DNA of 64,000 nt from a virus. Lineage: Duplodnaviria; Caudoviricetes. Under the pieces are notes generated by a model. That model was not told where the DNA came from and did no database searches. It was given only the letters and a program-made list of their open reading frames with translations. This document shows, piece by piece, positions 9,656 to 49,883 of the stretch (the stretch's first letter is position 1; every line of letters starts with the position of its first letter). The position numbers were made by a program, and so were the translations under genes. The stretch lies in the IMG/VR virus record IMGVR_UViG_3300020465_001196; one strand, 5' to 3'.

Positions 9656-9997
9656 TTAAGTTAATCCTTGAGTCCAACCATGTCCATAAAGTTCTTCTAT
9701 ATCAACATAATCAGATCCATACTTTATTCGGTCAACGTGTTTTTGCTGATGTACACAAAGCCTTTTATATTCAGCTAAATCTTCTATTTCTGAAATTAGT
9801 TTCATTGGACAAGGATCATTTAATATATCATCTAAATGTTTTATAGCACATAATCTTGTACTATATGCAATTATATCTTTTTTTGTTATACCTTCGGTTA
9901 AACAAGTTAGCAATATATTTTTTCTATATTTGTCAATTAAATTCGATAATTGTTTTACCCTCTTTGGATCAGGATAAGGTGGTCTTCCCTTTTTCAT
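9656..9997 (-). CDS. Hypothetical protein, last gene of cluster A
   Basis: 113-aa ORF tightly coupled to the upstream radical SAM gene. Confidence 0.6.
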   Translation of the reverse strand: MKKGRPPYPDPKRVKQLSNLIDKYRKNILLTCLTEGITKKDIIAYSTRLCAIKHLDDILNDPCPMKLISEIEDLAEYKRLCVHQQKHVDRIKYGSDYVDIEELYGHGWTQGLT

Positions 9998-9999
9998 AA

Positions 10000-11520
10000 T
10001 TACTCCTCTTTATACTCTTGAGATCCTGGATTAGGTCCTTGCGGATTCATGACCCAACCTTCTGTTATGGCTCGTTTTTCTAATTCTTTTTTCATCATAT
10101 TACCTTTAGTTGAATCACCGTCAACTATATTTTGTAATTTTTGTAAATTTGTATCTGGTATTGATTTATACCATTTGACAACATCTTCTGGAAATGTTTT
10201 TTCAAATAATTTGTTTCTTCTTACATCATATTGTGAATAAAATGATTTAAAATCTCTTTCACGTGATTCAATTGAAGATGTACCTTGATGGCCCACTTCT
10301 ACTTCACGCAAGTAGTTTATTAATCTACTTACACCATCTTGTTCCATATCAAAAAATAACTCGTGCTTTTTTCCTACATTTTCTAACCAATTTTCTAAAT
10401 TATCTGCTAAACGTTTTTTAATATCTTGCGGTAACGTTACTGCTGATTGAAAACTTGGAAAACGTAATATGTTAAAGCTCATTGCAGGAGCAAATTGTCC
10501 ATAACGTTCTTTTAGTTTAATCATTTCGTCCATAAATTCTGTAATACTAAACAAGCACAATGCATTGATAGTCATCATCATGTGTAGTTCACGTACATTA
10601 CCTTGTTCCATCATTTTATGAATATTACCTAACCAAGTATCCCATATTAATCCATCACGTATATATTCTGCGTGTGATCCAAATGCTTCGTTTGATGTAT
10701 ATAAATCAAACTCTTTAAACGCATGGCTTTCTTTTGCTAGTCTATCTATTAGTTCTGGTTTAGTTCCTAAATTAGAATTTACTGCTAATCGTACATCACA
10801 ATCTTTGTTGCTTTGCCACCAATTTAGTAATCTCCAAAAGTCTTGCGACATAGTTGCTTCACCACCAGTTACTCTTAATTCTTGTAGTGTGTGTTGTAAA
10901 TCTGATTCCCACCATTTAAAGAAAGCATCTACATAAGGATTGCCTGCATTTTTCTTTCCATATGGCATTGCCCATTTACCATCTTGTTGAAATGCTCTTG
11001 CACCGTCTGATACTAAATTTTGATAAGCACCGCTTTTCTTTATATCATTTTGCCATTGTGTTGAGAAACTAGCATTACAATATGAACAAGCATAATTACA
11101 ATTGGCATCGAAAGCAATTTCTAATGTTTTTAAATTAACATCTTCTTGCCAATCCATTTCACTTGCTTCTTTAATTTGATCTTCTGTGTATATTACAGTT
11201 TTATAAACTCTATCAGAAACATTGTTAGGACCTAGGTCTTCAACTTTCCAACAATATTCACACTCTTTAGGTCTTTCACCACATTGCATTTGTTTACGTA
11301 CCATTTTTTTATATTTGGTATTATGTATTGCTTTTGGATTTGCTAATACTTCTTCTAATGGTATTTTATGTGCAGGTGGGTGATGACAACTTGCTGTTGT
11401 TCCGCTGTTTAACCATACAGTAGCATTATACCATTTGGCACCACACCATGATGTCGATATTGGGTTAATTACCCTATCTCTATACTGTTGGTATGTTTCG
11501 TCTTTACGTTTTTTTGTCAT
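10000..11520 (-). CDS. N-terminal twitch-domain radical SAM protein
   Basis: N-terminal WCGAKW...SCHH...CEYCW, CNYACSYC triad, VTGGE. Confidence 0.9.
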   Translation of the reverse strand: MTKKRKDETYQQYRDRVINPISTSWCGAKWYNATVWLNSGTTASCHHPPAHKIPLEEVLANPKAIHNTKYKKMVRKQMQCGERPKECEYCWKVEDLGPNNVSDRVYKTVIYTEDQIKEASEMDWQEDVNLKTLEIAFDANCNYACSYCNASFSTQWQNDIKKSGAYQNLVSDGARAFQQDGKWAMPYGKKNAGNPYVDAFFKWWESDLQHTLQELRVTGGEATMSQDFWRLLNWWQSNKDCDVRLAVNSNLGTKPELIDRLAKESHAFKEFDLYTSNEAFGSHAEYIRDGLIWDTWLGNIHKMMEQGNVRELHMMMTINALCLFSITEFMDEMIKLKERYGQFAPAMSFNILRFPSFQSAVTLPQDIKKRLADNLENWLENVGKKHELFFDMEQDGVSRLINYLREVEVGHQGTSSIESRERDFKSFYSQYDVRRNKLFEKTFPEDVVKWYKSIPDTNLQKLQNIVDGDSTKGNMMKKELEKRAITEGWVMNPQGPNPGSQEYKEE

Positions 11521-11521
11521 T

Positions 11522-13920: not shown

Positions 13921-14535
13921 TTATATCTCCACCATTAAATAATCATCATAAATTCTTCTCGTGTATACATTACAAGTATTTAACTCTCCTGTGTAACTGG
14001 CTGTTAACTTATCTTGTGTAAGTAACTGTACAACAGGTACATAATAACTTGCAAATAAATCATGTGGGTCACCTGTTTGTGTTATAAAGAAGTTTAGTAT
14101 ACTTGTTCCATTTATTACAAGCATTTCTGGATTAGTGAACTTTTGTTGTTTACCAGTAAGTTGATACTTACTTGCCATATATGCTTTTAGTGTAGGATTA
14201 AATTCAAAAGTAACTGTTTTTTCTTTTTTATTATGTACAACTCTAATATCATAACTTAAATCATCATCTGTTCCTGATCTAATTTTATGTAAAGTTTTAT
14301 CAATTTCACGTATGTTTAAATGTATTTCTTTTTTCTTAATTGTAAAATCATCTGGATCTTTTGGATTTAATTCTATATAATACTGTGATTGTACTTTTGT
14401 ACCATCAACAAATTCTTTTATGTCATCAAACTCAACTTCATAATAAGGATGTATTACAGAACTATCAACTTCTCGAACAATTTTAACAATGTCTTTTGTT
14501 TCTAAATCATAATATAATATTCTAGACGTTGACAT
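13921..14535 (-). CDS. Hypothetical protein in cluster A
   Basis: ORF coupled to its neighbours; start set at MSTSR. Confidence 0.6.
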   Translation of the reverse strand: MSTSRILYYDLETKDIVKIVREVDSSVIHPYYEVEFDDIKEFVDGTKVQSQYYIELNPKDPDDFTIKKKEIHLNIREIDKTLHKIRSGTDDDLSYDIRVVHNKKEKTVTFEFNPTLKAYMASKYQLTGKQQKFTNPEMLVINGTSILNFFITQTGDPHDLFASYYVPVVQLLTQDKLTASYTGELNTCNVYTRRIYDDYLMVEI

Positions 14536-15397
14536 ATACTTGCTCCTCATATCTTTTTATAATTTCATCTGTAAGGAAATTCTTTGTAACATAATGTACT
14601 GGTAATGTTTGTTGATAGTTTCCAATTTTTAATCTACAATCTGGTGTAAAGTAAGCCCCAATATGTTTAGTCCAATCTTCTGTTGAACCTGATTTCCAAT
14701 TTTGTAATCTTGCTTTCATGTGAACAAATGTTGGACAAGTTACTGCTGGATTTGTTGATTGTTCTACAATGTCTAACATTTTCATTGCCATTGCATATAC
14801 AACATCAGCACTTAAAAACTCTTGTTTAGGTAATACTAATGCTGTGTCTCTATAATATTCCCAACGTCTAAATATATCTTCAACAACACTAAAGTATTCA
14901 TTTACCATATTTGATTTTTTATTAAAATAGAAAAATGCTGTATATACATTTGGTAGCATATTTGGTCCAAATGTTTTTCTGTAATGGTTATCAATTATTG
15001 TTTCACCTCGATATGTTTGAACGTTTGTTGTTGCCATCATATCCCAATGTGTAAAGTATTCCCACCAATGGCTTAGGTCTGTCATAAACAACATATCAGT
15101 ATCTAGTATTACTGTTTGCTCATAAGGTGTGCAATGGTAGTATTTCCATTTGTTGTTAATTTTCCAATCTGCCATTTGAGCGTCATCTTCAAAAGGTAAT
15201 TCAATAACTTCATCAAATACTGCTCTATAATGTTCTGGTACATCTGATTTATTAATAACAGCAATAGATATATTTTTAATTTGTGATTGTGTATGCTTAA
15301 TACTTAATGCTAATGCATAAGCCATACGTACATAATTAATAGATTTTCCATCTGCATCTTTAGAATTCTGTGCTATTACCAAATAACCTTGTTTCAT
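14522..15397 (-). CDS. GT-A (GT8-like) nucleotide-diphospho-sugar transferase
   Basis: GYLVIA, TVILDTDMLF (DxD), C-terminal FVHMK. Confidence 0.7.
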   Translation of the reverse strand: MKQGYLVIAQNSKDADGKSINYVRMAYALALSIKHTQSQIKNISIAVINKSDVPEHYRAVFDEVIELPFEDDAQMADWKINNKWKYYHCTPYEQTVILDTDMLFMTDLSHWWEYFTHWDMMATTNVQTYRGETIIDNHYRKTFGPNMLPNVYTAFFYFNKKSNMVNEYFSVVEDIFRRWEYYRDTALVLPKQEFLSADVVYAMAMKMLDIVEQSTNPAVTCPTFVHMKARLQNWKSGSTEDWTKHIGAYFTPDCRLKIGNYQQTLPVHYVTKNFLTDEIIKRYEEQVYVNV

Positions 15398-15948
15398 TTG
15401 TTTACCTTATTGTAAATTTGTATCCAATTATCAACCTTTTCAATATTGTCAGCATCATACATAGCATTGTAACTATGCTTCATAAAGTACGTCTTAAGTC
15501 CAATATTAGCACCGGCTACTGCGTTTGTCCACTTGTCTTCCACCCATATAGCACCACTTCCTTTGTATTGTGATAGCCATTTGTTTTTTGGTTCCATAAA
15601 TGGAATAATATCAATTCTTGCGAACACATCTGGAAATAAACTTTCAATATTTTGTTTTCGTAATGCGTTTGCATATTGATCTACACCCATTGATGTACAA
15701 GCAATAATTTCCCAACCCTCTTGTTTAAACTTTGGTAATATTTCTTGTGCATCTCTTAAAGGAGGCAAAAACCCAATCCATGCAGTATTATTATAATATT
15801 TTATAATGTCTGCTGTTTGATCTGATTGTGCAAATGTTGTAGGATCCCACAACGATACTTCTGGATAATACTGTTTTAAATATTTTTGAAAATGGTCTGA
15901 CCAGTTTAATACTACGCCGTCTATGTCTGTTAATAAAATTTTATGCAC
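15394..15948 (-). CDS. HAD-superfamily phosphatase (5'-nucleotidase-like)
   Basis: LLTDIDGV motif I; WVEDK...NAVAG motif IV. Confidence 0.8.
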   Translation of the reverse strand: MHKILLTDIDGVVLNWSDHFQKYLKQYYPEVSLWDPTTFAQSDQTADIIKYYNNTAWIGFLPPLRDAQEILPKFKQEGWEIIACTSMGVDQYANALRKQNIESLFPDVFARIDIIPFMEPKNKWLSQYKGSGAIWVEDKWTNAVAGANIGLKTYFMKHSYNAMYDADNIEKVDNWIQIYNKVNK

Positions 15949-16825
15949 TATACATCTCCACTATTTTTTTACTCTGTCGTACAATTGAATACTTGTTCAT
16001 TACATGGACATTAACGCCATCTGTACGTGCTGGAATAAAGTTACCAGGCTCACTTATTTTCTCTAATAAAAATGATAGTGATCCTTTTGAATTTACATTA
16101 TGAAGTTCATCATAATCTAATGTGTGTTGTAAAAAGTCGACTGGGAGGTTTTTAACTAATCGACTTTTTGCAAAACCATTAAACATATGAACAGCAATAC
16201 TAAACGCATGATCATTTCTAAAGTTATATGTTGTAATACCATAAAGTGTTTTAAAATAAGGATAGTTTGATTTAATTGATTCTAGTAAATTAAAAAATAT
16301 TTCTGTCTCAGGAGTTTTTCTAAAAAAGAAAACTGTTGCCCAATAAAAATCAATACCAAAGTCATCAACACGATCAAATTCTTGATGATGTCTTCCTGAT
16401 AATAAATCATAACTTCTTCTGTTAATCATTAAATCTTCTTTATGTCCCCAAATTTGATTTAATGTATCATTGCAAATTAGATAGTCAACATCAATAACTA
16501 GTGTTTCATCATATGGGGATTGTGTAAAAACTGTTGACCTATTAATATTATAAAATTGCAATAAGTTAACTGTATGTCTTGTATCTCTATAACGTTTGTT
16601 ATTTTCTACTTTGCGTCTTGGTTGTATTTTTATATTTTCAAAAGTACTGTCAATTAAACTTTGATCATATTGTGTTTTTAAATGTCGTACAGTACCTTCG
16701 TCAGTAATCAAAGTAATAGCATCAATACCCATATGATGTTTAATCATTAGAGCATTGGCTAATGCTATACTACCATAATCAATTTCAGAATTGTTATGTG
16801 CAAAAAATACTATACCTTGACTCAT
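15941..16825 (-). CDS. GT-A (GT8-like) transferase, paralog of 14522..15397
   Basis: GIVFFA, TLVIDVDYL (DxD), WATVFFF, VHVMNK. Confidence 0.7.
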   Translation of the reverse strand: MSQGIVFFAHNNSEIDYGSIALANALMIKHHMGIDAITLITDEGTVRHLKTQYDQSLIDSTFENIKIQPRRKVENNKRYRDTRHTVNLLQFYNINRSTVFTQSPYDETLVIDVDYLICNDTLNQIWGHKEDLMINRRSYDLLSGRHHQEFDRVDDFGIDFYWATVFFFRKTPETEIFFNLLESIKSNYPYFKTLYGITTYNFRNDHAFSIAVHMFNGFAKSRLVKNLPVDFLQHTLDYDELHNVNSKGSLSFLLEKISEPGNFIPARTDGVNVHVMNKYSIVRQSKKIVEMYSA

Positions 16826-17172
16826 GCCTCTACTAATTTTGCAGTTCTTCTTTTGGTTTGCATTTCGCTATATTGTTTGTGGTAATCATTTGTTACCTCA
16901 AAATATCTTGATGTAATTTCTGTTAAGAACGATTTTAAATTTTCAATCTTAATAGGATTTTCATTAACATCTAGCAATACCATTTCTTCATATCCTTGTT
17001 GTACAAATGTACCAACAAAAGCAATTAGCTCTTGAGTTACTTTAAATGTACCACCTTCTGTTGAATATGATAACAATGCCTGGCTTTTATTTTTCAGGAT
17101 TTGTTTTTGATTAAAGAATGTCTGCCTGTAGTTGGCAAATTCTAATGCTTTGTGTAATCTTTCATCACTCAT
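16822..17172 (-). CDS. Hypothetical protein, first gene of cluster A
   Basis: Start MSDERL after SD GGAGG; faint resemblance to tail-fibre assembly helpers. Confidence 0.6.
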   Translation of the reverse strand: MSDERLHKALEFANYRQTFFNQKQILKNKSQALLSYSTEGGTFKVTQELIAFVGTFVQQGYEEMVLLDVNENPIKIENLKSFLTEITSRYFEVTNDYHKQYSEMQTKRRTAKLVEA

Positions 17173-17178
17173 AAAAAA

Positions 17179-17213
17179 CCTCCGTTTATGTATAATATTA
17201 TACATAACGGAGG
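17179..17213. terminator. 35-nt near-perfect palindrome: terminator hairpin that contains a promoter and an RBS
   Basis: CCTCCGTTTATGTATAAT/ATTATACATAACGGAGG (1-nt bulge), followed by T6 and ATG on the minus strand. Confidence 0.8.
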
Positions 17214-17225
17214 CGTAAAAGTCAA
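17197..17225 (-). promoter_or_regulatory. Sigma70 promoter for cluster A
   Basis: TTGACT-N17-TATAAT with TG extension. Confidence 0.75.
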
Positions 17226-17239: not shown

Positions 17240-18178
17240 TTATGCACTTACTTCTGTAGTTGTAGCAGAACTTGGGTTAGCAACTTGTACATAAGAGGCG
17301 TTATCCGCTCTTAATGTAGTAATTGTGCTAGTTAAAGTTCCATCAACTGCGTCAGCGCCTGTCCAAGCTGTACCTTCATTTGGAGCAGTACCTAAACCGC
17401 CACCAGTGTATGTACCAGTTTGTGCCGCGTGATCATCTTTGAAGTAAACAGTAAAAGTTAAAACAGTTGCTGAGCCATAAGCCGCGTTTGCTTTTGCTTC
17501 AATTGTCCAATCATTCGCTGAATAGTTTCCTTGACCTGTTGCTGTAAAAATTTGTTGATTTGAAGTTGTTAAATCATCAAAACCTACAGAGGCCGCTGTT
17601 CCACCTGATCCAGTGTATGTAGTTGCACCTTCGGCAAATTTTACTGTGCCTGCGTTTGACAATAAGTTAGTCCAATCAGTGTTTTGATCTGTTGAAGAAC
17701 CACCTGCTCGTGATCCTGCAAATCTAATTTCACCGCCTGAATTAAAAAAGTGTCTAGCCGCATTCGCTGATGCAAAAGTTACTGTTAATATGTGTTGAAC
17801 TGTTCCAGTCCATGATGCTGTTCTTGATGAAGTTACACCAGAATCAGTAGCCATATTAGACGCATCTGCAGTCAGCTTGTTATTTGTAATTAATGTGATA
17901 TCTGCCTCTAAGTTAGATAATGGCAAAATGTTTCCACCAGCTGATACTGTGTTTGACGCATTCGTCAACGTAGTACCTTGGTGGTTAGCACCTTTCTGTA
18001 ATCCAGAAAGTAAACTGTTCCATTGTGCCGCTGTAATTGTGTTACCTGCAGAAACCGCCGCGATTTCTGAAATACCATAACCACTATCTGCTGAGCCAGT
18101 ACCAATAATTGTGTTAATGTTTGTAGCAAATGTGTTATAATCACTTGCTGTAATTGTATCACCTTGTTGGTAAGCCAT
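17240..18178 (-). CDS. Virion structural protein (Thr/Ser/Gly/Ala-rich)
   Basis: Internal repeat YQQGDTITASDYN / VSAGNTITAAQWN; end of the late structural operon. Confidence 0.65.
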   Translation of the reverse strand: MAYQQGDTITASDYNTFATNINTIIGTGSADSGYGISEIAAVSAGNTITAAQWNSLLSGLQKGANHQGTTLTNASNTVSAGGNILPLSNLEADITLITNNKLTADASNMATDSGVTSSRTASWTGTVQHILTVTFASANAARHFFNSGGEIRFAGSRAGGSSTDQNTDWTNLLSNAGTVKFAEGATTYTGSGGTAASVGFDDLTTSNQQIFTATGQGNYSANDWTIEAKANAAYGSATVLTFTVYFKDDHAAQTGTYTGGGLGTAPNEGTAWTGADAVDGTLTSTITTLRADNASYVQVANPSSATTTEVSA

Positions 18179-19500: not shown

Positions 19501-19565
19501 CGTTTATGTTCTCCTAAACTTTCAATCTTTAAAAGTAGTATATAAAATACTTACTTTATATTAGT

Positions 19566-19573
19566 TATTTATA
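19566..19573 (-). promoter_or_regulatory. Late promoter TATAAATA
   Basis: Exact T4 late consensus upstream of 19500. Confidence 0.75.
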
Positions 19574-39796: not shown

Positions 39797-40808
39797 CAGT
39801 TATCCTTATTGGAGATATACTCCAAGTCAAAACGGAGAACGTGAAGGATTGTTTAGTGGACATCCTTTACCATTAATGGTTACACATGAAAACATATATA
39901 ACAAAGCTAAAAAAGATAACGAAGAATGTAAATTTATTATTGAAGAATTAACAGAAGCTGATATTCCTGGACCATCGTTAGATGACGGACTTCCTGTTTT
40001 TGAAATGTTACATAAGATACTTAACGAAAGTAATATTGATAAAAATGATATTCATATGATTATGCCAAGTATTAATTTTGATCAGCAATATATTACTTGG
40101 TGTAAAAAAAATAATCACAAAGAAATTATAAAGCATAGACACACATACCCATTTTATTTTTTAGATGTACAAAAGAAATATGAATACGTAAACAACTTTA
40201 ATCATAATAGAATTTGTCATATGATGAGTTTAAATGGTGCTATGAAACCTAAACGTGTAGAGTTTGTAAATTTTTGTAAAGAAAACAGACTAATGGACAA
40301 TTATATTAGTTTAGTTGGAAATTATAATACAACCGGAGAAGAAGTTGAACCTGTAATATTAGATACTAATATAAACAATTTAAAAGAAGATGATAAACCT
40401 GTTCCATTAGATATGATGTATCAATCTTGGTTAAATGTTATTAATGAAACACACGAAGATGATACAATATTCTTTACTGAGAAATCATGGAAGCCAATAT
40501 TAAATTTACAATTGTTTTTATATTATGGAGTTGGTAATCCATCTGCATACTATAAAGCATTAGAATCATTTGGATTTAAGTTGTATGATGAAATATTTGA
40601 TTACAATAATGATCCTAAAAAAGAAATATTAAAATTTTGTTCAACACCTTTGCCACTTATACAGTCTGAAATAGTTGAGCAAGTTAAAGATAAAATGTTA
40701 TATAATCAACGTTTAGCTCTTGACACAGATTGGAGAGACGTATATCATAAGAAAATATACAAAGGAATATATGGAAAAGAAAAAGTATCTAATAACGTCT
40801 GGATGTAG
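39780..40808 (+). CDS. TEK-motif GT-B/GT10-like protein 2
   Basis: MSLNGAMKPKR, NVINET...FFTEKSWKPI...FGFKLYDEIFDY. Confidence 0.55.
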   Translation: MRVLYNSYPYWRYTPSQNGEREGLFSGHPLPLMVTHENIYNKAKKDNEECKFIIEELTEADIPGPSLDDGLPVFEMLHKILNESNIDKNDIHMIMPSINFDQQYITWCKKNNHKEIIKHRHTYPFYFLDVQKKYEYVNNFNHNRICHMMSLNGAMKPKRVEFVNFCKENRLMDNYISLVGNYNTTGEEVEPVILDTNINNLKEDDKPVPLDMMYQSWLNVINETHEDDTIFFTEKSWKPILNLQLFLYYGVGNPSAYYKALESFGFKLYDEIFDYNNDPKKEILKFCSTPLPLIQSEIVEQVKDKMLYNQRLALDTDWRDVYHKKIYKGIYGKEKVSNNVWM

Positions 40809-41589
40809 TTTTACAGCTCATGCTGTTGAATCAAACATTGCTTGGCCAAATCATATTAAAGATTGGCAAGTAATTAACTGTGCCGAAATGGCAAGTAGTA
40901 ACGCACTTATAAGTCGTAACTTAATAGCAAACATTCCACATTACTTAGATAAAGATCCAACTGTGGCTGTGATGTGGTCAAACCCAAATCGTTTTGAATT
41001 GTTTTATAATCGAGAAGCAAACAACTATGATAAAATTTATAGAGATATGAAAGGCCAAGGAGGATTTCAAAATCAACCATTAACAGGTAAATGGCAAACA
41101 CATGACTCTTCCAATTGGGCAAAGAGCGGAGGAGGATTTGGTCATTGGGAATTTGATAGCAAAGAATTAAACCAAGATATGAAATTATATCTTACTAACT
41201 TTCATCACGAAGAATTACAATTTGTGCAAACACTAGAACATATATTAAGAATACAATGGTACTGTAAAGCACACAATTTAAAATTAATTAATATGTGTTG
41301 GCAAGATATATTCACAGGACAAAATAGTCCGGACGGAAATAATTCAACACAGAGTGGTCAATTAATAATAAACAAATATGAAAATGCTATACACCTTTGG
41401 GAATTAGTTGATTGGTCAACTTGGTGGTTTCATCACAGTCATAAACAAGAATGGTCACGCCAATATGGTGGGCTAAAAGAATGGTGTATTGATAACGGAC
41501 ATGAACAGTTTCCAGGAAGTCATCCTACAACAGAAGCACAAAAAGATTTTGCTTCTACAATTGTAGAAAGGTTAATTAATGAAACGTAA
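40771..41589 (+). CDS. SGNH-hydrolase-like protein 2
   Basis: ITSGCSFT, WSNPNR, PGSHP; start set at MEKKKY. Confidence 0.7.
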   Translation: MEKKKYLITSGCSFTAHAVESNIAWPNHIKDWQVINCAEMASSNALISRNLIANIPHYLDKDPTVAVMWSNPNRFELFYNREANNYDKIYRDMKGQGGFQNQPLTGKWQTHDSSNWAKSGGGFGHWEFDSKELNQDMKLYLTNFHHEELQFVQTLEHILRIQWYCKAHNLKLINMCWQDIFTGQNSPDGNNSTQSGQLIINKYENAIHLWELVDWSTWWFHHSHKQEWSRQYGGLKEWCIDNGHEQFPGSHPTTEAQKDFASTIVERLINET

Positions 41590-42016
41590 AATATTAATAA
41601 TGGGTTTACCAGGATCAGGTAAAACAACATTAGCAAAGCATTTGGCTCCATTGTTTAATGCAGTATTACTAAATGCAGATACAGTAAGAAAAGAAGCAAA
41701 CGATTGGGACTTTAGTCTAGAAGGTAGAGATAGACAAGCATTAAGAATGTGGACATTGGCCCAAGAAGCATTAGATGATGGTAAAACTGTTGTTGCCGAC
41801 TTTGTTTGTCCTACTGTAAAAACAAGAAAAGAATTTAATGCAGATTATACTATATGGATGAACACCATCGAAGAATCAGAATATCAAGATACAAATGATA
41901 TGTTTGAAAGACCAATTGTTGCTAATGGCGATAGTGCAGATATTGTTATTACACAGAAAGATGCAGAAACTTGGGCATATACAATCTTTCAAATAGTTGC
42001 AGGAGAAGTTGTATGA
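41579..42016 (+). CDS. cysC: Adenylyl-sulfate (APS) kinase
   Basis: GLPGSGKT P-loop, NADTVRK, DFSLEGRDRQ, VADFVCPT. Confidence 0.8.
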   Translation: MKRKILIMGLPGSGKTTLAKHLAPLFNAVLLNADTVRKEANDWDFSLEGRDRQALRMWTLAQEALDDGKTVVADFVCPTVKTRKEFNADYTIWMNTIEESEYQDTNDMFERPIVANGDSADIVITQKDAETWAYTIFQIVAGEVV

Positions 42017-42327
42017 AAAAACTTTGGGAAAAATATAAAGCACACGATAAAAAAGTAAAAGAAGCACAGGCAAATTTTAAAGTGTCTGATATAAAGAACA
42101 AATACTTTAGAGCATTAATGTGGATCTTTATGTTGAGATTTGTATGGGATATTACTACACTATTTGAAAAGTATTTGCCTATGCCTAAAGTATACAAAGT
42201 ATTAGGCTTAGGTTGGACAAAATTAGGTTACTATGTGTTTTGGTTATTATGGTTTATATTCTTAGGAGTATTGTTATATAACATACTAGGCGAACAATTA
42301 TTTGATCAGGTAATAAACGAACTATGA
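42013..42327 (+). CDS. Membrane protein (2 TM)
   Basis: Hydrophobic segments; ATGA-coupled to cysC. Confidence 0.6.
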   Translation: MKKLWEKYKAHDKKVKEAQANFKVSDIKNKYFRALMWIFMLRFVWDITTLFEKYLPMPKVYKVLGLGWTKLGYYVFWLLWFIFLGVLLYNILGEQLFDQVINEL

Positions 42328-43094
42328 AAAAAATATTAACTACAGGATGTTCATTTACTCACGCACCAAACAGTTGGGCAAATTATTTGAAAGAAGAATA
42401 TGATTTAGTTAATGTTGCTGAAGGCGGTGCTGGTAATGAAATGAATTTAAGAAATGCCAGCCTAGAAGTATTATCAGAATCATACTCTCATGTTATTGCA
42501 CAAATTAGTGGTATAAACAGATTTGAAATTATATATGATGAAAAAATGGAATCAAAAAATAATTATATACTTCCTAAAGAATATTACACTTGGATTAAAA
42601 GTACAGGAGATCAACGTTGGTGGCGAGGACTTGAACAAAACAATTTTGATTTATTTCGAACAAGTAAACATATCAGTGATAGACTAGATGCGTATATAAA
42701 ATATACACATTCGGATGTACAGCAAATATTAAGAACACTTATGAACATTGTGTTTTTACAAAAACTATGTAAAGAAAAAAATATTAACTGCTTGTTCTTT
42801 TGTTGGAAAAATGAATTTGCAATATATGAAAAACAAATTAATGAATCTGCAGAACTTACAAATTGGTGGGATCAAATTGATTGGTCAAAATTTTGGTTCC
42901 ATGGAGCAATGGGTGGACTTGCAGAATGGGGAATAGCAAATGGTTTTACTGGAGCATTACATGAAGATAAAATAAATGTTCCAGCAAAAGGTTGGCATGA
43001 TGTTGACGGGCAAAAAATTATGATTGGTCATCCGTCGACAGACTGCCACTGGAACTTTGCAAAGAAAGTAATTAAACCTTGGATTGAACAATGA
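42324..43094 (+). CDS. SGNH-hydrolase-like protein 3
   Basis: LTTGCSFT, GGAGN, ISGINR, IGHP. Confidence 0.7.
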   Translation: MKKILTTGCSFTHAPNSWANYLKEEYDLVNVAEGGAGNEMNLRNASLEVLSESYSHVIAQISGINRFEIIYDEKMESKNNYILPKEYYTWIKSTGDQRWWRGLEQNNFDLFRTSKHISDRLDAYIKYTHSDVQQILRTLMNIVFLQKLCKEKNINCLFFCWKNEFAIYEKQINESAELTNWWDQIDWSKFWFHGAMGGLAEWGIANGFTGALHEDKINVPAKGWHDVDGQKIMIGHPSTDCHWNFAKKVIKPWIEQ

Positions 43095-43321
43095 CAAAAA
43101 CATACATACACGTTAACCAACATAAAATTAGGAGTAATAAAAAACATGGGACTAATGAACCTGTTATCACTATTAAACGTGGAAGTAGGAATGACTATTG
43201 TCATGCCGTTAAAATATTGGGCGATAGTACTGTTCGTTATGGTGGCAATGATAAGCCTATCCTTAGTTGCGGTGCTAGAGTTGTTATAGAAACTGAAGCG
43301 GAAGTTAAAATTGTAGAATGA
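43091..43321 (+). CDS. Conserved marine phage hypothetical protein
   Basis: YIHVNQHKIRSN...LSCGARVVIET; coupled to its neighbours. Confidence 0.65.
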   Translation: MTKTYIHVNQHKIRSNKKHGTNEPVITIKRGSRNDYCHAVKILGDSTVRYGGNDKPILSCGARVVIETEAEVKIVE

Positions 43322-44637
43322 TCAATTTATTATATCAAACTTGGATTAATGAAGTACCTATTTCAAATAGTGTACCTCCACACAAACGCAAAATAAATTC
43401 TAATGGTTACGGAAATGTTAAATGTAATTACATAGAAAAAATGTTTGAAGTTGAAGATATTAAATGGAATTCAAAAAACATAGACACAGTTAATCCAAAC
43501 GAAATTACATATTATCATATACAACCAGAATGGATTGACTTGGCTTTCTTTTATGAAAATGTATTTCATCATATTGATGACAATGTGTTAAACTTGTTAC
43601 GTGATCCAAATAATAAAGTAAGAGTATTAATATGGTTTCCAAGTGAAGGCTTTCATTTATCAATGCCAAGATTCTTAGATGATATAACTTGGAGTATTAC
43701 TGATAAAGGAATTCCTTTTGAAAAAGTATATATGGTTTATGGTGATTTAAATATCGAACAAAATTATAAAACATACATGAAAGTAAAACGTTTTGGTAAT
43801 GATCAAAAAATTAATATGTATCCTTTTAATATATTTGAAACAAACTACAGACATGAATGCGATGTAAGATACTTTATGAATCATAAACATAAAGGTGTAT
43901 CTAATGAATTAATTGATGCTTCTGAACTATCAAAAGATCATATACGTTCACACAAATTTTTATGTAAGAATGCAAATCCAAGAGAACACAGAATTTATAT
44001 ATTAAGCGAGTTATATCGTAAAGGCTATCAAGATCAAACTATACATAGTTTTTTAAATAGATATTTTACACCAGACAGTATTGGTAATTTAAGAAGTTAC
44101 CTAACACAAGAAGATATGCATTTAGCAAAGACTATTGACAGTTATGGTAAGCAATGGCTAAAAGAAAAAACACCAATAATACTTGATCATAATGCTGATA
44201 CGATTGGTGATGATATGAACCAACGTATACTAACTAAAGAACATTTTACTGAAACATATTTTAGTTTTGTAACTGAAACTGTATTTGAATCACAACCAGG
44301 TTCTCCATTATTTGTTACTGAAAAAACATATATGCCTTTTGTAAATTATCATCCTTTTATTATTACAAGTGGTACTGGGTGTTTACAATATTTAAAGGAC
44401 CAAGGATACGAAACGTTTCCAGAAATATTTGATGAGTCATATGACAATATTAATAACAGGGCAGAAAGATTAAAATCTATAATGAATAATATCGAACGTA
44501 TATGCAAAATGGATATTAAAGAATTGCATAAACTATATTGGAGTGTTTGGGATAAACTAGAACACAATAGAAATCATTTTTTTCAAAGGAGTCACGCTAA
44601 TCGTTGGACTAAATTATTGGAATTTTTATCCAGATAA
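43318..44637 (+). CDS. TEK-motif GT-B/GT10-like protein 3
   Basis: FLCKNANPREHR, YFSFVTET...FVTEKTYMP...HPFI...GYETFPEIFDESYD. Confidence 0.55.
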   Translation: MINLLYQTWINEVPISNSVPPHKRKINSNGYGNVKCNYIEKMFEVEDIKWNSKNIDTVNPNEITYYHIQPEWIDLAFFYENVFHHIDDNVLNLLRDPNNKVRVLIWFPSEGFHLSMPRFLDDITWSITDKGIPFEKVYMVYGDLNIEQNYKTYMKVKRFGNDQKINMYPFNIFETNYRHECDVRYFMNHKHKGVSNELIDASELSKDHIRSHKFLCKNANPREHRIYILSELYRKGYQDQTIHSFLNRYFTPDSIGNLRSYLTQEDMHLAKTIDSYGKQWLKEKTPIILDHNADTIGDDMNQRILTKEHFTETYFSFVTETVFESQPGSPLFVTEKTYMPFVNYHPFIITSGTGCLQYLKDQGYETFPEIFDESYDNINNRAERLKSIMNNIERICKMDIKELHKLYWSVWDKLEHNRNHFFQRSHANRWTKLLEFLSR

Positions 44638-44648
44638 GTATATACATC

Positions 44649-45263
44649 ATGTCAAAGAAAACAGAAAAAGAACTAAAAAGAGTCAGAGGAAGAATGTTAA
44701 TTTCAATGCCACACATGGCTGACCCACGATTCTATAAAACTACATTAGCAGTTATACGGCACGATGCCAGTGGTGCAAGTGCTATTATTTTTAACAAGCC
44801 ATCTAAAAGTTTAATCTTTAGTGAAGTATGTTTAGACATGGGATTAAAATGTCATCCTAAATGGAAAAATCAACCAATATATTATGGCGGCCCAATTAAC
44901 ACATCACAAATATTTGTTATACATAGTAGCGACTATCATGATAAAGATACAATGAACGTTGCTCCAAGTATATCACTAACTTCAAATAAAGCAATAATAC
45001 AAACCATTGCAGAAGACAAAGGTCCTAATTTATTTAAAGTTGCAGTTGGTTGTGCAATATGGAGTCCAGATCAACTTGATGATGAAATAGAAGGAGCATG
45101 GCCACGTGATGGAGTTATCAGTTGGTTGCATACAGATTTAAATCCAGCTAACGTATACTCTACAAAAGATAATTGGAATGACGCTATAGAATTATACAGC
45201 CAGTCAATGGCTTCAAACATATTAAAAAGGTTAGAAGTAGAAGATGCCAAATATAATTTCTAA
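44649..45263 (+). CDS. YqgE/AlgH (DUF179) family protein
   Basis: GRMLISMPHMADPRF, IIFNKP, YYGGP, GCAIWSPDQLDDEI; GATAAGTA box at 44633. Confidence 0.85.
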   Translation: MSKKTEKELKRVRGRMLISMPHMADPRFYKTTLAVIRHDASGASAIIFNKPSKSLIFSEVCLDMGLKCHPKWKNQPIYYGGPINTSQIFVIHSSDYHDKDTMNVAPSISLTSNKAIIQTIAEDKGPNLFKVAVGCAIWSPDQLDDEIEGAWPRDGVISWLHTDLNPANVYSTKDNWNDAIELYSQSMASNILKRLEVEDAKYNF

Positions 45264-46272
45264 AAATAATAAAAAATATCTTGTTTATGATTTTGATTGT
45301 GGCCGAGAAAAAGGTTTTGGTGACCTGTTGCAAACAAAAGACTTATGGATAAAATCAAAAGATAAACCATACGTTGTTATTTCAAATGCATATGAAGGTG
45401 AAATACATCACAAACAAGCTGATCAATTTTTAGAAAGACTTCATGCTGAACTACGAGGTTATGAACATGATAAAATTGTATTAGTAATGGCAGATGCTAA
45501 TTTAGAAAAAAATTACAAACGTTGGTATAAAAATTACAAAGAGCCAAGAGTAATTGGGCATTGTGTATACTATCCATATACATTATTAAAAAGATCTATC
45601 GAAAGTTTTAACAAATATAAAATTAATAAAAAGTATATGACTAGGAAGCCAAAGTATTTTATTTGTATGAATGGTGCCGCAAAGCCTCACAGATTTCATA
45701 TGGTAGAAACATTATATTCAAACGACTGGCATCACAAAGGTCATATTACATATCTAAACAGATATGGTGAAAACACAAAACATATGGCTAATGAAAACTT
45801 TCAAGGACAAACATTAAAATTAGACTTTGATGCTAAAACTATTGACGAAGGTGATAATCAAGAAATACTTCCACCAGAATATAGAGAAGCAATATTTGAT
45901 GTTGTAACTGAAAGTATTGTTAGTGATAGTAGTGTATTCATAACTGAAAAAACTTGGAAACCAATATTACAAAAAGTTCCTTTTTTACCATTAGGTTCAA
46001 AAAAAATGTGTAAACATTTAGAAGAATTTTTTGGAATTAAATTGTATAACAATCTATTCAATTATAGTTTTGATTATATTGATTATCCAAATAGACTACA
46101 CAGAATCAAAGAAGATAACTTAAGAAGGTTAATCAATACTCCTTTAGCGGACCTTAACGATATAATTAATTCAGATAAAATGCAAAAACAATTATCATAC
46201 AATCAAACGCAATTAATTAATTTTAAAATTCCAATGCTAATAGATGCTATTGATAAAGAGGTCAATGGATAA
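45244..46272 (+). CDS. TEK-motif GT-B/GT10-like protein 4
   Basis: FICMNGAAKPHR, FDVVTES...FITEKTWKPI...PFL. Confidence 0.55.
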   Translation: MPNIISKNNKKYLVYDFDCGREKGFGDLLQTKDLWIKSKDKPYVVISNAYEGEIHHKQADQFLERLHAELRGYEHDKIVLVMADANLEKNYKRWYKNYKEPRVIGHCVYYPYTLLKRSIESFNKYKINKKYMTRKPKYFICMNGAAKPHRFHMVETLYSNDWHHKGHITYLNRYGENTKHMANENFQGQTLKLDFDAKTIDEGDNQEILPPEYREAIFDVVTESIVSDSSVFITEKTWKPILQKVPFLPLGSKKMCKHLEEFFGIKLYNNLFNYSFDYIDYPNRLHRIKEDNLRRLINTPLADLNDIINSDKMQKQLSYNQTQLINFKIPMLIDAIDKEVNG

Positions 46273-47494
46273 AGATACTGCATTAAAAAAATCAAAACGT
46301 TTCTGTATGTTACCTTGGACACATTTACACTCATGGCCAGATGGCAGAGTGTTACCATGTTGTATGGCCCCAATGGACGAAATACTTGGTAACTTAAAAG
46401 ATCAATCATTTGAAGATATTTGGAATTCAGATAAGTTAAAGAAAATGCGTGTAGCAATGTTAAAAGATAAACCAACAAAAGAATGCACTCGTTGTTATTC
46501 TATGGAATCAAGTGGATTGAATACAACAAGAACTTGGGCTAATGAAACATTTGAAAATCATTTTGATAAAGTAGGAACTACACAAGAAGATGGTACCGTT
46601 GATAAAATTAACTTACCATATATTGATTTTAGATTTTCAAATTTATGTAACTTTAAATGTAGAACTTGTGGACCAGATTTATCATCAAGCTGGTACGAAG
46701 ATAATATTAAACTGTATGGTCCATTAAAACATCCAAAAATTATAAGGCCATATAAAGATGAAGAAACATTTTGGCAAAAAGTCGAACCATACATGGACGG
46801 ATTAGAAGAAATATATTTTGCAGGTGGTGAACCACTTATCATGGAAGAACATTATAGAATTCTTAAAAAACTTGATGAACGTAAAATGTATCACGTAAGA
46901 TTAAAATACAACACAAACTTTTCACAAATGACATTTAAAAAATTAGATGTTATGGAAATATGGAATCGTTTTGAATCTGTTAAAATAGGTGCTTCGTTAG
47001 ATGGCATGGGTAAACGTGGAGAATACTTACGTAAAGGACAATCATGGGAACAAGTTGAAGAAAATAGAAAACGTATGTTTGATATTTGTCCAGATGTATA
47101 TGTGTTCCTTGCAACTTGTTTAAATGTATATAATAGTTTCCATGTACCAGACTTTCATCATGAATGGATACAAAAAGGTTGGATTGACGCTGTTGGTGGC
47201 AGTTTGATTAATCCGTTGTTTGTACCAGAAGAACTTTCTATACAAATACTCCCAATGGAAATGAAAAAACGATTAGAAGAAAGATATGTGCAAGAACAAG
47301 AATGGTTTGACAAGTATACGCAAAATAAAGAAAAACGTTATGATAAACTAATTCATTTTATGTATGAAAAAGATTCATCACATCTTATTCCAAAGTTTTG
47401 GGAAAGAACAAATATGGTCGATAAGTTACGTAACGAAGATGTTATTTCATTGTTCCCAGAATTGATGGACCTAAAAAATCATCAACCAGTTTAG
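46265..47494 (+). CDS. N-terminal twitch-domain radical SAM protein 3
   Basis: FCMLPW...PCC...CTRC, CNFKCRTC, FAGGEP. Confidence 0.9.
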   Translation: MDKDTALKKSKRFCMLPWTHLHSWPDGRVLPCCMAPMDEILGNLKDQSFEDIWNSDKLKKMRVAMLKDKPTKECTRCYSMESSGLNTTRTWANETFENHFDKVGTTQEDGTVDKINLPYIDFRFSNLCNFKCRTCGPDLSSSWYEDNIKLYGPLKHPKIIRPYKDEETFWQKVEPYMDGLEEIYFAGGEPLIMEEHYRILKKLDERKMYHVRLKYNTNFSQMTFKKLDVMEIWNRFESVKIGASLDGMGKRGEYLRKGQSWEQVEENRKRMFDICPDVYVFLATCLNVYNSFHVPDFHHEWIQKGWIDAVGGSLINPLFVPEELSIQILPMEMKKRLEERYVQEQEWFDKYTQNKEKRYDKLIHFMYEKDSSHLIPKFWERTNMVDKLRNEDVISLFPELMDLKNHQPV

Positions 47495-48278
47495 CATTTC
47501 CTTCATTGCTAAAATGATACCCGTTATCTATTTGATAAGATTCAAAATTCTTTTTACCAAATAAACCTTCTATAGATGGAAAAGGTCTAAGCTCAAAAAG
47601 ATTTGAACGAAATTCTGGTTTATACTTTAACCAATAAAATGGTAATACATCTTTACCTTTGGATTGCAAGTAATCTATTAAACTATATGTTTGTGAATAA
47701 TAAAAATATTTTTGATAATCTGTTTCACTTTGTTGTTCATACCAAGTTGCAATATAACTTTTAAAATTTGTTAAAGACAATTGTGGAGTAACTTTATCTT
47801 TTATTTTATCATTATATAATTTTTCTATAAATGATTCCCATCTCTTTTCTTTATGATGTTCACTTGCACTTGCTCCAATTCCTTGACTTAAATGTATTAT
47901 GTGACCACTTAAATCCCATATTTTATAATAGCTTCGATCTCCTTTATCAACTTCATCAAAACCAAAACGTATTCTTTTTTCTTTTTCTTCAATTGGATCT
48001 AACGCAAGTATTGATCTATCATGTGTTGTAATTTGAAATACAAACATATCTGGATCAAACTCTTTTAAAAGATAGTCAGCAACTAAATGACAATACTCAA
48101 CTCCTGCACCTGGTCTACCAGCTTGTATTATATCAGCTTTTATTCCATTATTACCTAAGTAAGTCATTAAATGATAAGGGTAAGTTTCATTATCTGGCAT
48201 ATCACCATTACCTGTTGAACTTAATCCTCTAGTCCAACTGCAACCTAAACAGGCTATCTTTAAATTTTTATTTGGCAT
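47442..48278 (-). CDS. SGNH-hydrolase-like protein 4
   Basis: CLGCSWT, PGAG, DNGYHF. Confidence 0.65.
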   Translation of the reverse strand: MPNKNLKIACLGCSWTRGLSSTGNGDMPDNETYPYHLMTYLGNNGIKADIIQAGRPGAGVEYCHLVADYLLKEFDPDMFVFQITTHDRSILALDPIEEKEKRIRFGFDEVDKGDRSYYKIWDLSGHIIHLSQGIGASASEHHKEKRWESFIEKLYNDKIKDKVTPQLSLTNFKSYIATWYEQQSETDYQKYFYYSQTYSLIDYLQSKGKDVLPFYWLKYKPEFRSNLFELRPFPSIEGLFGKKNFESYQIDNGYHFSNEGNAKLVDDFLGPSILGTMK

Positions 48279-48669
48279 ATTCTTTTACTTTATGAAACAT
48301 ATTATACGCACCATTTCTTCTGTTAGGTGACAAAATATTTATTAACTGTAGACTTTCAATAACGTTATCAATATCTGTGTTTTGTATTTCTTTTTTAGTT
48401 ACATCGCTAAAGATATCTGCAACCATTGTTACTATTCCTTTAGTAATATGTGCATCTGAATCTGCCATAAATGATATTGTACTTTCGTTATATTTTGGAA
48501 CTAACCATACTTGACTCATACATCCGTGAACTTTAAATGTATCTAATCTATACTCTTCTGACATAGAACTTTTACTACCTAATGTTATTAGATATTGATA
48601 TTTGTCCATATTATTATCAAATAATTCTAAATCTGTTTTATATTTTTCTAATTTTTCTTGTATAGACAT
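48268..48669 (-). CDS. sufE: SufE-family cysteine desulfurase sulfur acceptor
   Basis: DKYQYLITLG, KVHGCMSQVW (active Cys), DSDAHITKG, LSPNRRNG. Confidence 0.92.
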   Translation of the reverse strand: MSIQEKLEKYKTDLELFDNNMDKYQYLITLGSKSSMSEEYRLDTFKVHGCMSQVWLVPKYNESTISFMADSDAHITKGIVTMVADIFSDVTKKEIQNTDIDNVIESLQLINILSPNRRNGAYNMFHKVKEYAK

Positions 48670-48701
48670 TTTATCCTTTTTGTGCTATGTTAAATATAGT
48701 T

Positions 48702-49883
48702 ATGCACACACCAAAATCATTTTGTATACTACCATGGATATCATTAGAGTCCACAGCCGCAGGGTGGGTTAAACCTTGCTGTATGTATAATAATAACATG
48801 ACTGATGAAAACAATCAACCATTCAATTTACAAAAAAATACATTTAATGATGCTTGGAATAGTGATTATTATAGAAACCTAAGACAAGAATTCTTAGATG
48901 GTAAAATGCCAAAAGGTTGTACAAAATGTTGGAGTGAAGAAGCAAGTGGTAAAGTATCTAAACGTATTAGAGATAATCAAAAATACAAACATCATATTAC
49001 TGAAGAAATAATACAGGAACCTAAATTAAAATATTTAGATCTAAAACTAGGAAACATTTGTAATTTAAAATGTCGTATATGTGGAACACATTCAAGTTCA
49101 AAATGGATAGCAGAACAAAAGCACTATGACAAGCAAGACAATCACGAAGAAGAACACACACGTCATGGCTGGCCTGAAACTAACAAAAAGTTTTGGGAAG
49201 AACTTGAAGAACTGTTGCCAACATTAGAATACATCGACTTTACTGGTGGTGAACCATTTATGATTAAAGAACAATTTGAACTATTAAAGTTTTGTGTTGA
49301 AAAGGGTTATGCAAAAGATATTGGCATACACTATAACACAAATGGAACACAATTACCAAATGATGCATTACAAAACATATGGCCGCACTTTAAATCAGTT
49401 GACGTGCAGTTTTCAATTGATGGAATAGAAAATCATTTTGAATATCAAAGACATCCTGCTAAATGGAAAAATGCTTTACACGTTATAAATGAATTTAAGA
49501 ATAAACAAAGCAAAAAGTTTACTGTTGGTATATGTCATACAATTAACATCTTTAACGTGCTATACATACCCAAATTTTTAACATGGGCAAAAGAATTTGG
49601 TATAAGTGTATACTTGAACAGTTTACATTATCCATCGCATTATAATATTAAGTGTTTACCAAATGAGGCTAAAAGAAACATTACTAATAGGTTACAAGAA
49701 AACAATAACAAAGACATACAAACGTTCATTGATTATATGAATCAAGATGATAATGGATATCATGATTGGATGAAATTTGTACATTGGACTATGCGTGTTG
49801 ATAAATTTAGAAGCGAAAACTTTGAACAAGTTTTTCCAGAACTAGCAGAAGCAACTGAATATAAATATTATAAAAGGAAATAA
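48702..49883 (+). CDS. N-terminal twitch-domain radical SAM protein 4
   Basis: FCILPW...PCC...CTKC, CNLKCRIC, FTGGEP; start set at MHTPK after the TTAAATA box. Confidence 0.9.
   Translation: MHTPKSFCILPWISLESTAAGWVKPCCMYNNNMTDENNQPFNLQKNTFNDAWNSDYYRNLRQEFLDGKMPKGCTKCWSEEASGKVSKRIRDNQKYKHHITEEIIQEPKLKYLDLKLGNICNLKCRICGTHSSSKWIAEQKHYDKQDNHEEEHTRHGWPETNKKFWEELEELLPTLEYIDFTGGEPFMIKEQFELLKFCVEKGYAKDIGIHYNTNGTQLPNDALQNIWPHFKSVDVQFSIDGIENHFEYQRHPAKWKNALHVINEFKNKQSKKFTVGICHTINIFNVLYIPKFLTWAKEFGISVYLNSLHYPSHYNIKCLPNEAKRNITNRLQENNNKDIQTFIDYMNQDDNGYHDWMKFVHWTMRVDKFRSENFEQVFPELAEATEYKYYKRK

Follow-up and report, generated by a model that had tools for sequence, protein, structure and literature searches.

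The stretch of viral DNA analysed here (64,000 nucleotides, IMG/VR record IMGVR_UViG_3300020465_001196; hereafter the window) has a GC content of ~31% and comes from an uncultured marine jumbo myophage of the RaK2/PA5oct-like kind. The window encodes gp25 and a VgrG-like OB domain, distant DNA matches of its baseplate wedge gene were found in Salicola phage SCTP-2, Pseudomonas phage PA5oct, and Klebsiella phage RaK2, and DNA of the same phage is contained in marine metagenomes from 11 studies. Flanking the baseplate genes are two groups of enzyme genes, cluster A and cluster B (Table 1), which encode GT8-like glycosyltransferases, a protein of a family termed p336, GT-B-like glycosyltransferases sharing a TEK motif, SGNH-fold proteins, N-terminal-twitch radical S-adenosylmethionine (SAM) proteins, and a sulfotransferase-like protein with an adenosine 5′-phosphosulfate (APS)-kinase-like kinase. 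Overall, we consider it probable that the two clusters form a system by which a glycan is assembled and tailored. A minus-strand series of genes runs from gp25 through the wedge gene, a gene for a 3901-aa protein, and three fibre-type genes to cluster A at its distal end. Because IMG/VR contig UViG_3300020477_000990 (IMGVR_UViG_3300020477_000990; G001; 328,149 bp with direct terminal repeats) is rated complete and is collinear with the window across both clusters at ~80% nucleotide identity, it was used as a whole-genome proxy and is referred to below as the complete relative.

A preliminary description of this DNA, made from the sequence alone, had taken the two clusters to belong together, and both their contiguity in relatives and the co-occurrence of their families across loci bear this out. 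Modules A and B adjoin each other in two more distant relatives (G002 and G003), where the order is p336, radical SAM, radical SAM, a repeated SGNH/TEK unit, and radical SAM. Further, at least nine diverse contigs carry on one strand the order fibC43, fibC26, p127, GT8, GT8, small open reading frame (ORF), p336, radical SAMs, and TEKs, and in each of the 9 contigs in which upstream DNA is visible, the GT8 pair is preceded by homologs of the fibre genes (fibC175, fibC43, and fibC26). N-terminal-twitch radical SAMs (up to 8 per 20 kb) were present in 56 (71%) of 79 loci seeded with TEK, SGNH genes in 23, and p336 in 29; conversely, 33 of 65 SGNH-seeded loci contained TEK and 26 contained radical SAMs. 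Compared with chance, adjacency was raised 4.4-fold for pairs of radical SAM genes, 3.1-fold for p336 with radical SAM, and 2.5-fold for SGNH with TEK, and stood at 0.9 times chance for radical SAM with TEK. As far as genomics can show, the clusters in the window are one conserved operon that is split by the baseplate genes.

By all-vs-all BLASTP and family hidden Markov models (HMMs), the radical SAM, TEK, and GCS/SGNH-like families each have exactly four members in the window, the DxD (GT8-like) family has two, and p336 has one; the three equal counts had been read as a matched 4:4:4 set that might reflect repeated add-then-tailor modules or be coincidence. The complete relative contains 14 radical SAMs over the family cut-off, 6–9 TEK proteins, 4 SGNH proteins, 2 GT8-like proteins, and 2 p336 proteins, and TEK, radical SAM, and SGNH counts were equal in none of 61 non-redundant full-length related loci. 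In the same 61 loci, the copy number of TEK was weakly correlated with that of radical SAMs (rho 0.28) and not significantly with that of SGNH proteins (rho 0.16). The unequal counts rule out 4:4:4 as a stoichiometric rule; the ratio is a product of the window edges.

Table 1. Genes of the fibre region and of clusters A and B, by position in the window
Position	Strand	Product	Evidence or remark
9656–9997	-	113-aa protein, closes operon	Conserved in complete relative; no Pfam or PHROG match
10000–11520	-	N-terminal-twitch radical SAM	NF033640 298 bits
11522–12910	-	N-terminal-twitch radical SAM	NF033640 345 bits
12907–13917	-	p336 family protein, VDGD motif	Possibly GT2-like
13921–14550	-	209-aa protein	Conserved in complete relative; no family match
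14522–15397	-	GT8-like GT-A glycosyltransferase, DTD motif	Paralog of 15941–16825; glycogenin profile match
15394–15948	-	NT5C/HAD-type phosphatase between the two GT8 genes	PF06941 27.2 bits, over cut-off; phrog_420 E=3e-29
15941–16825	-	GT8-like GT-A glycosyltransferase, DVD motif	Profile match to glycogenin
16822–17205	-	p127, conserved 127-aa protein between fibre gene and GT8 pair	Same position in 9 loci
17240–20255	-	Three fibre-type virion genes (17240–18178, 18178–19500, 19608–20255)	PHROG matches to virion structural and tail-fibre families
36806–37369	+	ClpP-like protease, first plus-strand gene, transcribed away from gp25	PF00574 E=2e-27
37396–38097	+	SGNH-fold protein, GCS instead of GDS	Paralogy, profile, family HMM
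38094–38651	+	Sulfotransferase-like protein, PKCASS and RLPFARLKS motifs	Motifs, Atlas lead
38648–39796	+	TEK-family GT-B glycosyltransferase	Paralogy, family HMM
39780–40808	+	TEK-family GT-B glycosyltransferase	Paralogy, family HMM
40720–41589	+	SGNH-fold protein	Paralogy, HMM; true start probably ATG near 40771
41579–42016	+	APS-kinase-like P-loop kinase, 145 aa, full length	PF13671 41 bits, PF01583 35 bits
41971–42327	+	118-aa hydrophobic ORF overlapping kinase stop	
42324–43094	+	SGNH-fold protein (modelled copy)	AlphaFold2 (AF2), Foldseek
43318–44637	+	TEK-family GT-B glycosyltransferase	Paralogy, family HMM
44649–45263	+	AlgH-like (DUF179) protein	PF02622 E=8e-28; in cluster only in close relatives
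45244–46272	+	TEK-family GT-B glycosyltransferase (modelled copy)	AF2, fold matches
46244–47494	+	N-terminal-twitch radical SAM	NF033640 411 bits; Pfam SPASM and Radical_SAM
47442–48278	-	SGNH-fold protein, divergent fourth copy	Independent HMM
48268–48669	-	SufE, sulfur acceptor for Fe-S assembly	PF02657 E=4e-34
48687–49883	+	N-terminal-twitch radical SAM	NF033640 393 bits

Direct Pfam, PHROG, and NCBIfam scans returned nothing for the TEK, SGNH-like, GT8-like, p336, and sulfotransferase-like proteins, and four-sequence profiles searched against PDB likewise returned nothing; detection of these families required deeper alignments built from viral contigs. For TEK, no sequence match was found in Pfam, PHROG, NCBIfam, or PDB, including searches with the four-sequence profile and with 96 homologs, and 0 of 96 members matched Pfam Glyco_transf_10 (PF00852) or any other glycosyltransferase model at E<=0.01. 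The four GT-B-like TEK proteins proposed from the sequence were nevertheless all recovered, and the AF2 model of the modelled copy, built on a 96-sequence alignment (pLDDT 89.4), matched GT-B glycosyltransferases only, over its full length (VIA-align Z up to 11.4 over residues 2–342). Its matches in Foldseek or VIA were T4 β-glucosyltransferase, mango FUT13, FUT9, HpFucT, SdgB, GtfA, and POFUT3, and the GT10 fucosyltransferases (Helicobacter pylori FucT, human FUT9, plant FUT11/13) were among the best structural matches at Z 10–11 and 10–13% identity. Judged by its predicted structure, the TEK family has a GT-B fold that is most like that of GT10 fucosyltransferases. In the 96 homologs, E235 and K236 of the TEK motif are invariant and E51, R150, D194, and E223 nearly so, and the consensus FSxVxET...FxTEKTxKP is a C-terminal donor-binding-type motif ending in TEK. 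The E...x-TEK motif, the arginine, and the N-terminal glutamate echo what we take to be the GDP-fucose site of HpFucT, which we treat as a lead only. In viral Atlas clusters, TEK-fold domains are fused to GDP-mannose-dehydratase/epimerase (GDP_Man_Dehyd/Epimerase) or methyltransferase domains, and the former fusion, seen in one such cluster, hints indirectly that TEK proteins may use GDP-fucose.

The TEK family is almost wholly viral or metagenomic, with at least 500 matches in IMG/VR and 15,417 representatives at 50% identity in a library of 1.84 billion proteins, and its source names are all "hypothetical." A tblastn search with one TEK protein against 50,697 GenBank phage records gave no match, and no cultured TEK model was accordingly identified. 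The four TEK paralogs share 21–28% identity with one another; each has an ortholog at ~70–80% identity in a close relative, and one is still ~45% identical in more distant relatives. Because mutual identity is low and orthologs are retained, the sequences point to old, specialised copies and not to recent duplicates. A bacterial TEK homolog on a 1.46-Mb Chitinophagales contig lies among two GDSL genes and genes for a DXD transferase, UbiA, UDP-glucose dehydrogenase, and an ABC transporter.

The four SGNH-like proteins of the preliminary description were likewise recovered by BLASTP and HMM counts, and their assignment agrees with both an AF2 fold and a profile match. The model of the SGNH protein at 42324–43094 (pLDDT 93.5) superimposed on TesA with Z 14.0 (root-mean-square deviation 3.3 over 158 residues), and its top Foldseek matches, all of them SGNH enzymes, were headed by the peptidoglycan O-acetyltransferase PatB, followed by TesA and acetyl-xylan esterases. 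The family profile matched GDSL esterases with E=1.6e-5, with blocks I and V aligned. In 64 family sequences G8, S10, and H236 are invariant, and the motif reads G-C-S, not G-D-S. By eye, the block V D-x-x-H is found only in the protein at 37396–38097, the other three reading PGSH, MIGH, and NGYH, and a Ser-His dyad is possible in the copies that lack the block V Asp. The divergent fourth copy was matched over its full length (E=4.6e-13) by an HMM of 88 family members from which its own orthologs had been left out.

The four radical SAM proteins, two of them tandem copies in cluster A with 38% mutual identity, score 298–411 bits against NCBIfam NF033640 ("twitch domain-containing radical SAM protein," N_Twi_rSAM; curated cut-off 170 bits), confirming the class first assigned to them. 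Pfam places the SPASM domain at residues 13–85 and Radical_SAM after it at ~121–286. Across 163 sequences, C21, C40, C81, C84, C135, C139, and C142 (the last three being the CxxxCxxC core) and a GGE motif are 98–100% conserved, a cysteine pattern that fits a SAM cluster plus one fully Cys-ligated auxiliary cluster. The twitch/SPASM dehydrogenases BtrN and anSME similarly combine a radical SAM core with a fully Cys-ligated auxiliary [4Fe-4S] site, and the C-x18-C-x40-CxxC spacing of the window proteins is near what we take to be that of BtrN; the auxiliary domain of the window proteins, however, is N-terminal, a permuted order, and their sequence similarity to these dehydrogenases is only at the general radical-SAM level. 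NF033640 is a family defined by computation only, so that membership reveals no function, and a literature search for NF033640 or for N-terminal twitch/SPASM proteins found no paper.

Proteins of this type are strongly expanded in the relatives, with 14 copies over the cut-off in the complete relative and 17 in a 55%-complete one; the former has ~20 radical SAM genes in all (14 over the cut-off and 6 weaker) in at least six places. By comparison, 3 of 50,697 GenBank phage records contain an NF033640-type radical SAM, and the cut-off was reached in 3 of 401 Bacteroidota genomes and in 0 of 14 control genomes. A Haliscomenobacter metagenome-assembled genome (G005) has 12 such proteins over the cut-off, 11 of them in two similar clusters (C1:104–114 kb and C3:17–26 kb), and the Haliscomenobacter cluster fetched as L147 also contains TEK and p336 genes. 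Two cultured jumbo phages carry them as well. In Ralstonia phage RsoM2USA (MG752970.1; L184 8126–12131), three SGNH-family genes surround the gene for gp202, an N_Twi radical SAM, and all of them are annotated as hypothetical; Vibrio phage K566 (OZ196521.1; L183 8959–15701) carries a run of four consecutive radical SAM genes. Neither phage has a TEK gene within 9 kb.

Three GT-A transferases had been proposed for the locus, and two of them stand. A profile of 19 homologs of the GT8-like pair matched glycogenin-1 and -2 (E=5e-8 to 2e-7) in the nucleotide-binding region, with the DaD motif aligned to the glycogenin DAD; the Pfam GT8 model itself did not match the pair. The third, p336, has no match in Pfam, PHROG, NCBIfam, or PDB, and its profile showed no relation to that of the GT8 pair (hhalign probability 0.2); the family, of which 47 copies were counted in 32 loci, has a VDGD motif and an automatic Atlas label of "Glycosyltransferase 2-like." The sulfotransferase assignment is putative and comes from two motifs of the PAPS-binding type, seen by eye, and from an Atlas lead; the protein had no sequence match in Pfam, NCBIfam, or PDB; the top Atlas cluster, a language-model lead with a score of 0.96, contains 19% Sulfotransfer_2 members. 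Similarly, the putative APS kinase is a P-loop kinase whose best extended PDB match is the APS kinase 2yvu (E=5e-4, residues 6–83), but it falls far below equivalog cut-offs (TIGR00455: 25.6 bits against 138.7), its matches cover only residues 5–87, and Pfam AAA_33 (PF13671, 41 bits) outscores APS_kinase (PF01583, 35.1 bits; cut-off 21.1).

The kinase ortholog in the complete relative is 148 aa long and is directly followed by an SGNH gene, the ~340-bp stretch of the hydrophobic ORF at 41971–42327 being absent there; a frameshift of the kinase into that ORF is thereby ruled out, and the ORF probably lies outside the system. The HAD phosphatase and SufE were both confirmed by family matches (Table 1); the phosphatase gene is lineage-specific, being missing from the conserved operon in other contigs, and SufE plausibly supports the radical SAMs. 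A short-chain dehydrogenase/reductase (SDR) reported nearby (51016–51570, minus strand, 184 aa) does match adh_short_C2, but only in its C-terminal half and at threshold (27.8 bits), and the ORF just upstream (51571–51882), although in the same frame across a stop codon, was ruled out as its N-terminal half, having no Rossmann motif. The ClpP-like gene that opens cluster B keeps its position in close relatives. In cluster A, p127, which had no family match in Pfam or PHROG, could be a fibre chaperone.

In related loci, the neighbours of these genes encode a carbamoyltransferase, a DegT-type aminotransferase, a split thiamine pyrophosphate/transketolase enzyme, a cytidylyltransferase, a B12 radical SAM, a GT7-LamG fusion, a 2-oxoglutarate oxygenase, and an amidinotransferase-like protein, which by their predicted families make up a sugar-tailoring toolkit. 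In the complete relative, a B12 radical SAM is encoded at 68.3 kb, genes for a carbamoyltransferase, a TEK protein, and a radical SAM form a trio at 82–86 kb, and an amidinotransferase-like gene lies in a group of radical SAM genes at 293 kb. The clusters in the window contain no sugar-nucleotide synthesis gene, ATP sulfurylase, exporter, or initiating transferase, and their enzymes have no transmembrane segment or signal peptide. In the complete relative, ATP sulfurylase of either type (PF01747, PF01507) had no match, and the only clear nucleoside diphosphate-sugar epimerase-type SDR lies far from the clusters. Because sugar-nucleotide and sulfurylase genes are missing, the pathway would be host-dependent, in contrast to the self-contained one suggested at first; the host could supply APS.

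Tentatively, we favour the reading that the glycan is built and tailored in the host cytoplasm onto the phage's own fibre or baseplate proteins, because a fibre protein with 27% Ser+Thr, a candidate acceptor, is encoded directly upstream of cluster A in the same operon (17240–18178). What follows on donors, acceptor, and the reactions at the individual steps is inferred. The GT8-like pair, possibly p336, and the four TEK paralogs would add sugars from nucleotide sugars made by the host, and the SGNH proteins, whose genes tend to adjoin TEK genes, would add or remove O-acyl groups. The N-terminal-twitch radical SAMs would carry out redox or other radical tailoring of the sugars, with SufE helping to load their clusters, and the sulfotransferase-like protein together with the APS-kinase-like kinase may add sulfate from host APS, so that the finished glycan may be both sulfated and acylated. 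Such a glycan would coat the host-binding apparatus, as mycobacteriophage virion glycosylation cassettes do.

Several points weigh against decoration of the virion. The linkage to fibre genes equally fits enzymes that alter the host receptor glycan; up to 14–17 radical SAM paralogs per genome exceed, to our knowledge, the needs of any known glycan pathway; and glycan SGNH acyltransferases usually work outside the cytoplasm. No nucleotide-sugar genes were found in the window, and the assignments of p336, the sulfotransferase, and the kinase are weak. As to expression, a metatranscriptome of the sample that also gave a source metagenome has contigs matching parts of the wedge and gp25 genes and of cluster B at >=99% identity (window 31000–50900, over which DNA coverage is flat). 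These matches are compatible with expression of the baseplate genes and cluster B and no proof of it, since contigs from an RNA library are unable to prove transcription, timing, or strand. Scans for sigma-70 promoters and for terminators found sites no more often than in shuffled sequence, and we therefore make no claim on timing. The sole intergenic gap between the fibre genes and cluster A has an 11/12 match to the sigma-70 consensus (TTGACT-N17-TATAAT; 17197–17225, minus strand), and such sites are, region-wide, no commoner than in shuffled sequence.

The main rival, which we consider rather unlikely, is remodelling of the host surface, in which the soluble transferases would modify either nucleotide-sugar pools or undecaprenyl-linked intermediates of the host's O-antigen or capsule, blocking superinfection or sparing progeny from being trapped on debris; proximity to fibre genes would then come from co-evolution of receptor and receptor-binding protein. 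Most O-antigen transferases are soluble or peripheral, the locus of the bacterial TEK homolog is of a polysaccharide type and includes an ABC transporter, and the window encodes a polysaccharide lyase (57347–58336). The same interpretation has been given to cassettes in the host-recognition regions of pelagimyophages and cyanomyophages (PMC7029224, PMC12801897). However, both clusters lack an initiating transferase, flippase, polymerase, and exporter, as well as any protein with a membrane segment; little time for surface turnover is available to a strictly lytic jumbo phage; and cluster A is the tail end of a structural fibre operon. That synteny, in its strictness, would also be unexpected for a pathway making a free product, that is, a soluble modified sugar, pseudo-oligosaccharide, or aminoglycoside-like metabolite directed at competitors or host defence or serving as a signal. 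The toolkit seen over related loci does resemble aminoglycoside pathways (BtrN-type twitch protein, B12 radical SAM, DegT, carbamoyltransferase, amidinotransferase-like protein, kinase, and glycosyltransferases), and three such cyanophage genes have been called "antibiotic synthesis genes" (PMC12801897); the window, however, has no aminotransferase, amidinotransferase, or cyclitol synthase, and no exporter or self-resistance gene, and we regard this reading as improbable.

DNA had been named as another potential acceptor, with the GT-B enzymes glycosylating modified bases and the other enzymes tailoring the glycan as protection from restriction. Glycosyltransferases with which phages hypermodify DNA by attaching glycans are on record (Pyle et al. 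2024, as cited in PMC12619734). T4 β-glucosyltransferase is the top Foldseek PDB match of the TEK model (E=4.8e-4), and the T4 α- and β-glucosyltransferases reach Z ~10 against it, but the T4 enzymes score no better than dozens of other GT-B enzymes, and the operon in this lineage is tied to fibre and not to replication genes. Moreover, the complete relative has no credible hydroxymethylase of the thymidylate-synthase family (the best match, at 15.5 bits, falls within a 611-aa ORF), a result that speaks against glycosylated 5-hydroxymethyl bases, and we hold DNA hypermodification to be very improbable. It may also be asked whether there is a single pathway at all: the clusters could be a hypervariable accessory region in which the radical SAMs are peptide or protein maturases (cross-linking fibres, for example) unrelated to the transferases. 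Radical SAM genes mostly adjoin each other and stand beside TEK genes no more often than by chance, copy numbers are weakly correlated, the two cultured jumbo phages have radical SAM arrays with no TEK nearby, and SPASM/twitch enzymes are often peptide maturases (NCBIfam side matches). On the other hand, most TEK-seeded loci carry these otherwise rare radical SAMs, gene order is kept across diverse contigs and even in a Haliscomenobacter genome, and no small Cys-rich precursor ORF was noticed in either cluster, leaving only a small chance for unrelated functions.

Elsewhere in the window, a polysaccharide lyase (57347–58336, minus strand; PF14099, E=3e-21) and a cell-wall hydrolase (58899–59573, minus strand; PF07486) suggest a host with a uronic-acid-type surface polysaccharide that is degraded by the phage. 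The structural region is bracketed by two paralogs of the glycine-zipper/17-kDa outer-membrane-antigen type (7221–7829 and 56886–57137, both minus strand; 51% identity over 73 aa). The gene at 8257–9549 (minus strand) encodes a nucleobase permease of the NCS2 type (Xan_ur_permease), which is full-length and has 11 hydrophobic segments, and the stretch 8258–9714 has no counterpart in the collinear complete relative, indicating a lineage-specific insertion.

Islands of glycosyltransferase and radical-SAM genes next to those for tail fibres are a common feature of abundant, uncultured phages of marine and fresh waters. To these, our analysis adds the fold-level identity of the TEK (GT-B, GT10-like) and Cys-variant SGNH families, the union of the two clusters in one operon, the scale of the per-genome radical SAM expansion, and the putative sulfation pair, together with the rejection of the 4:4:4 ratio. 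TEK is a GT-B family of ~15,000 sequence clusters that has no Pfam model and is found together with a radical SAM family which, rare in the 401 Bacteroidota and 14 control genomes searched, is expanded to 14–17 copies within individual phage genomes; the set as a whole is linked to the fibre genes. If the virion is the target, glycosylation of phage particles would extend from actinobacteriophages to ocean jumbo phages, with new radical enzymology on sugars; if it is the host surface, the system would have a bearing on superinfection exclusion in the sea. A bolder proposal, which we think doubtful, is that of a mainly viral combinatorial system in which radical SAM arrays, TEK, and Cys-variant SGNH proteins decorate receptor-binding fibres with radically tailored, possibly sulfated and acylated glycans. 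If true, fibre decoration would be a new layer of control over host range or defence evasion and a source of uncharacterised radical sugar chemistry, with 14–17 distinct radical SAM activities per phage being possible.

Consistent with the preliminary description, a literature search found no such pathway characterised in a phage, although earlier papers on marine myophages describe cassettes of glycosyltransferases and radical SAMs next to tail-fibre genes (PMC7029224, PMC12801897), and "cell wall synthesis and modification" genes have been listed for S-SCSM2R, S-SCSM1, and P-SSM2 (PMC12801897). The host-recognition clusters of pelagimyophages and cyanomyophages resemble those in the window in that glycosyltransferases, prominently of GT8, and radical SAMs stand beside fibre genes in large marine myophages. 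In contrast to them, the window phage is a RaK2/PA5oct-like jumbo phage whose clusters are split around baseplate genes and include, in addition, SGNH paralogs, SufE, and the putative sulfation pair. Glycosylation of mycobacteriophage virions has been demonstrated experimentally (Freeman et al. 2023, as cited in PMC12619734), and there too glycosyltransferase genes lie beside structural genes and soluble enzymes are implied for the modification of virion proteins in the cytoplasm. The enzyme families of the mycobacteriophage cassettes are, however, unrelated to those described here; radical SAM and SGNH proteins are not reported there, and virion glycosylation, an experimental finding in the mycobacteriophages, is for the window phage a reading from its genes.

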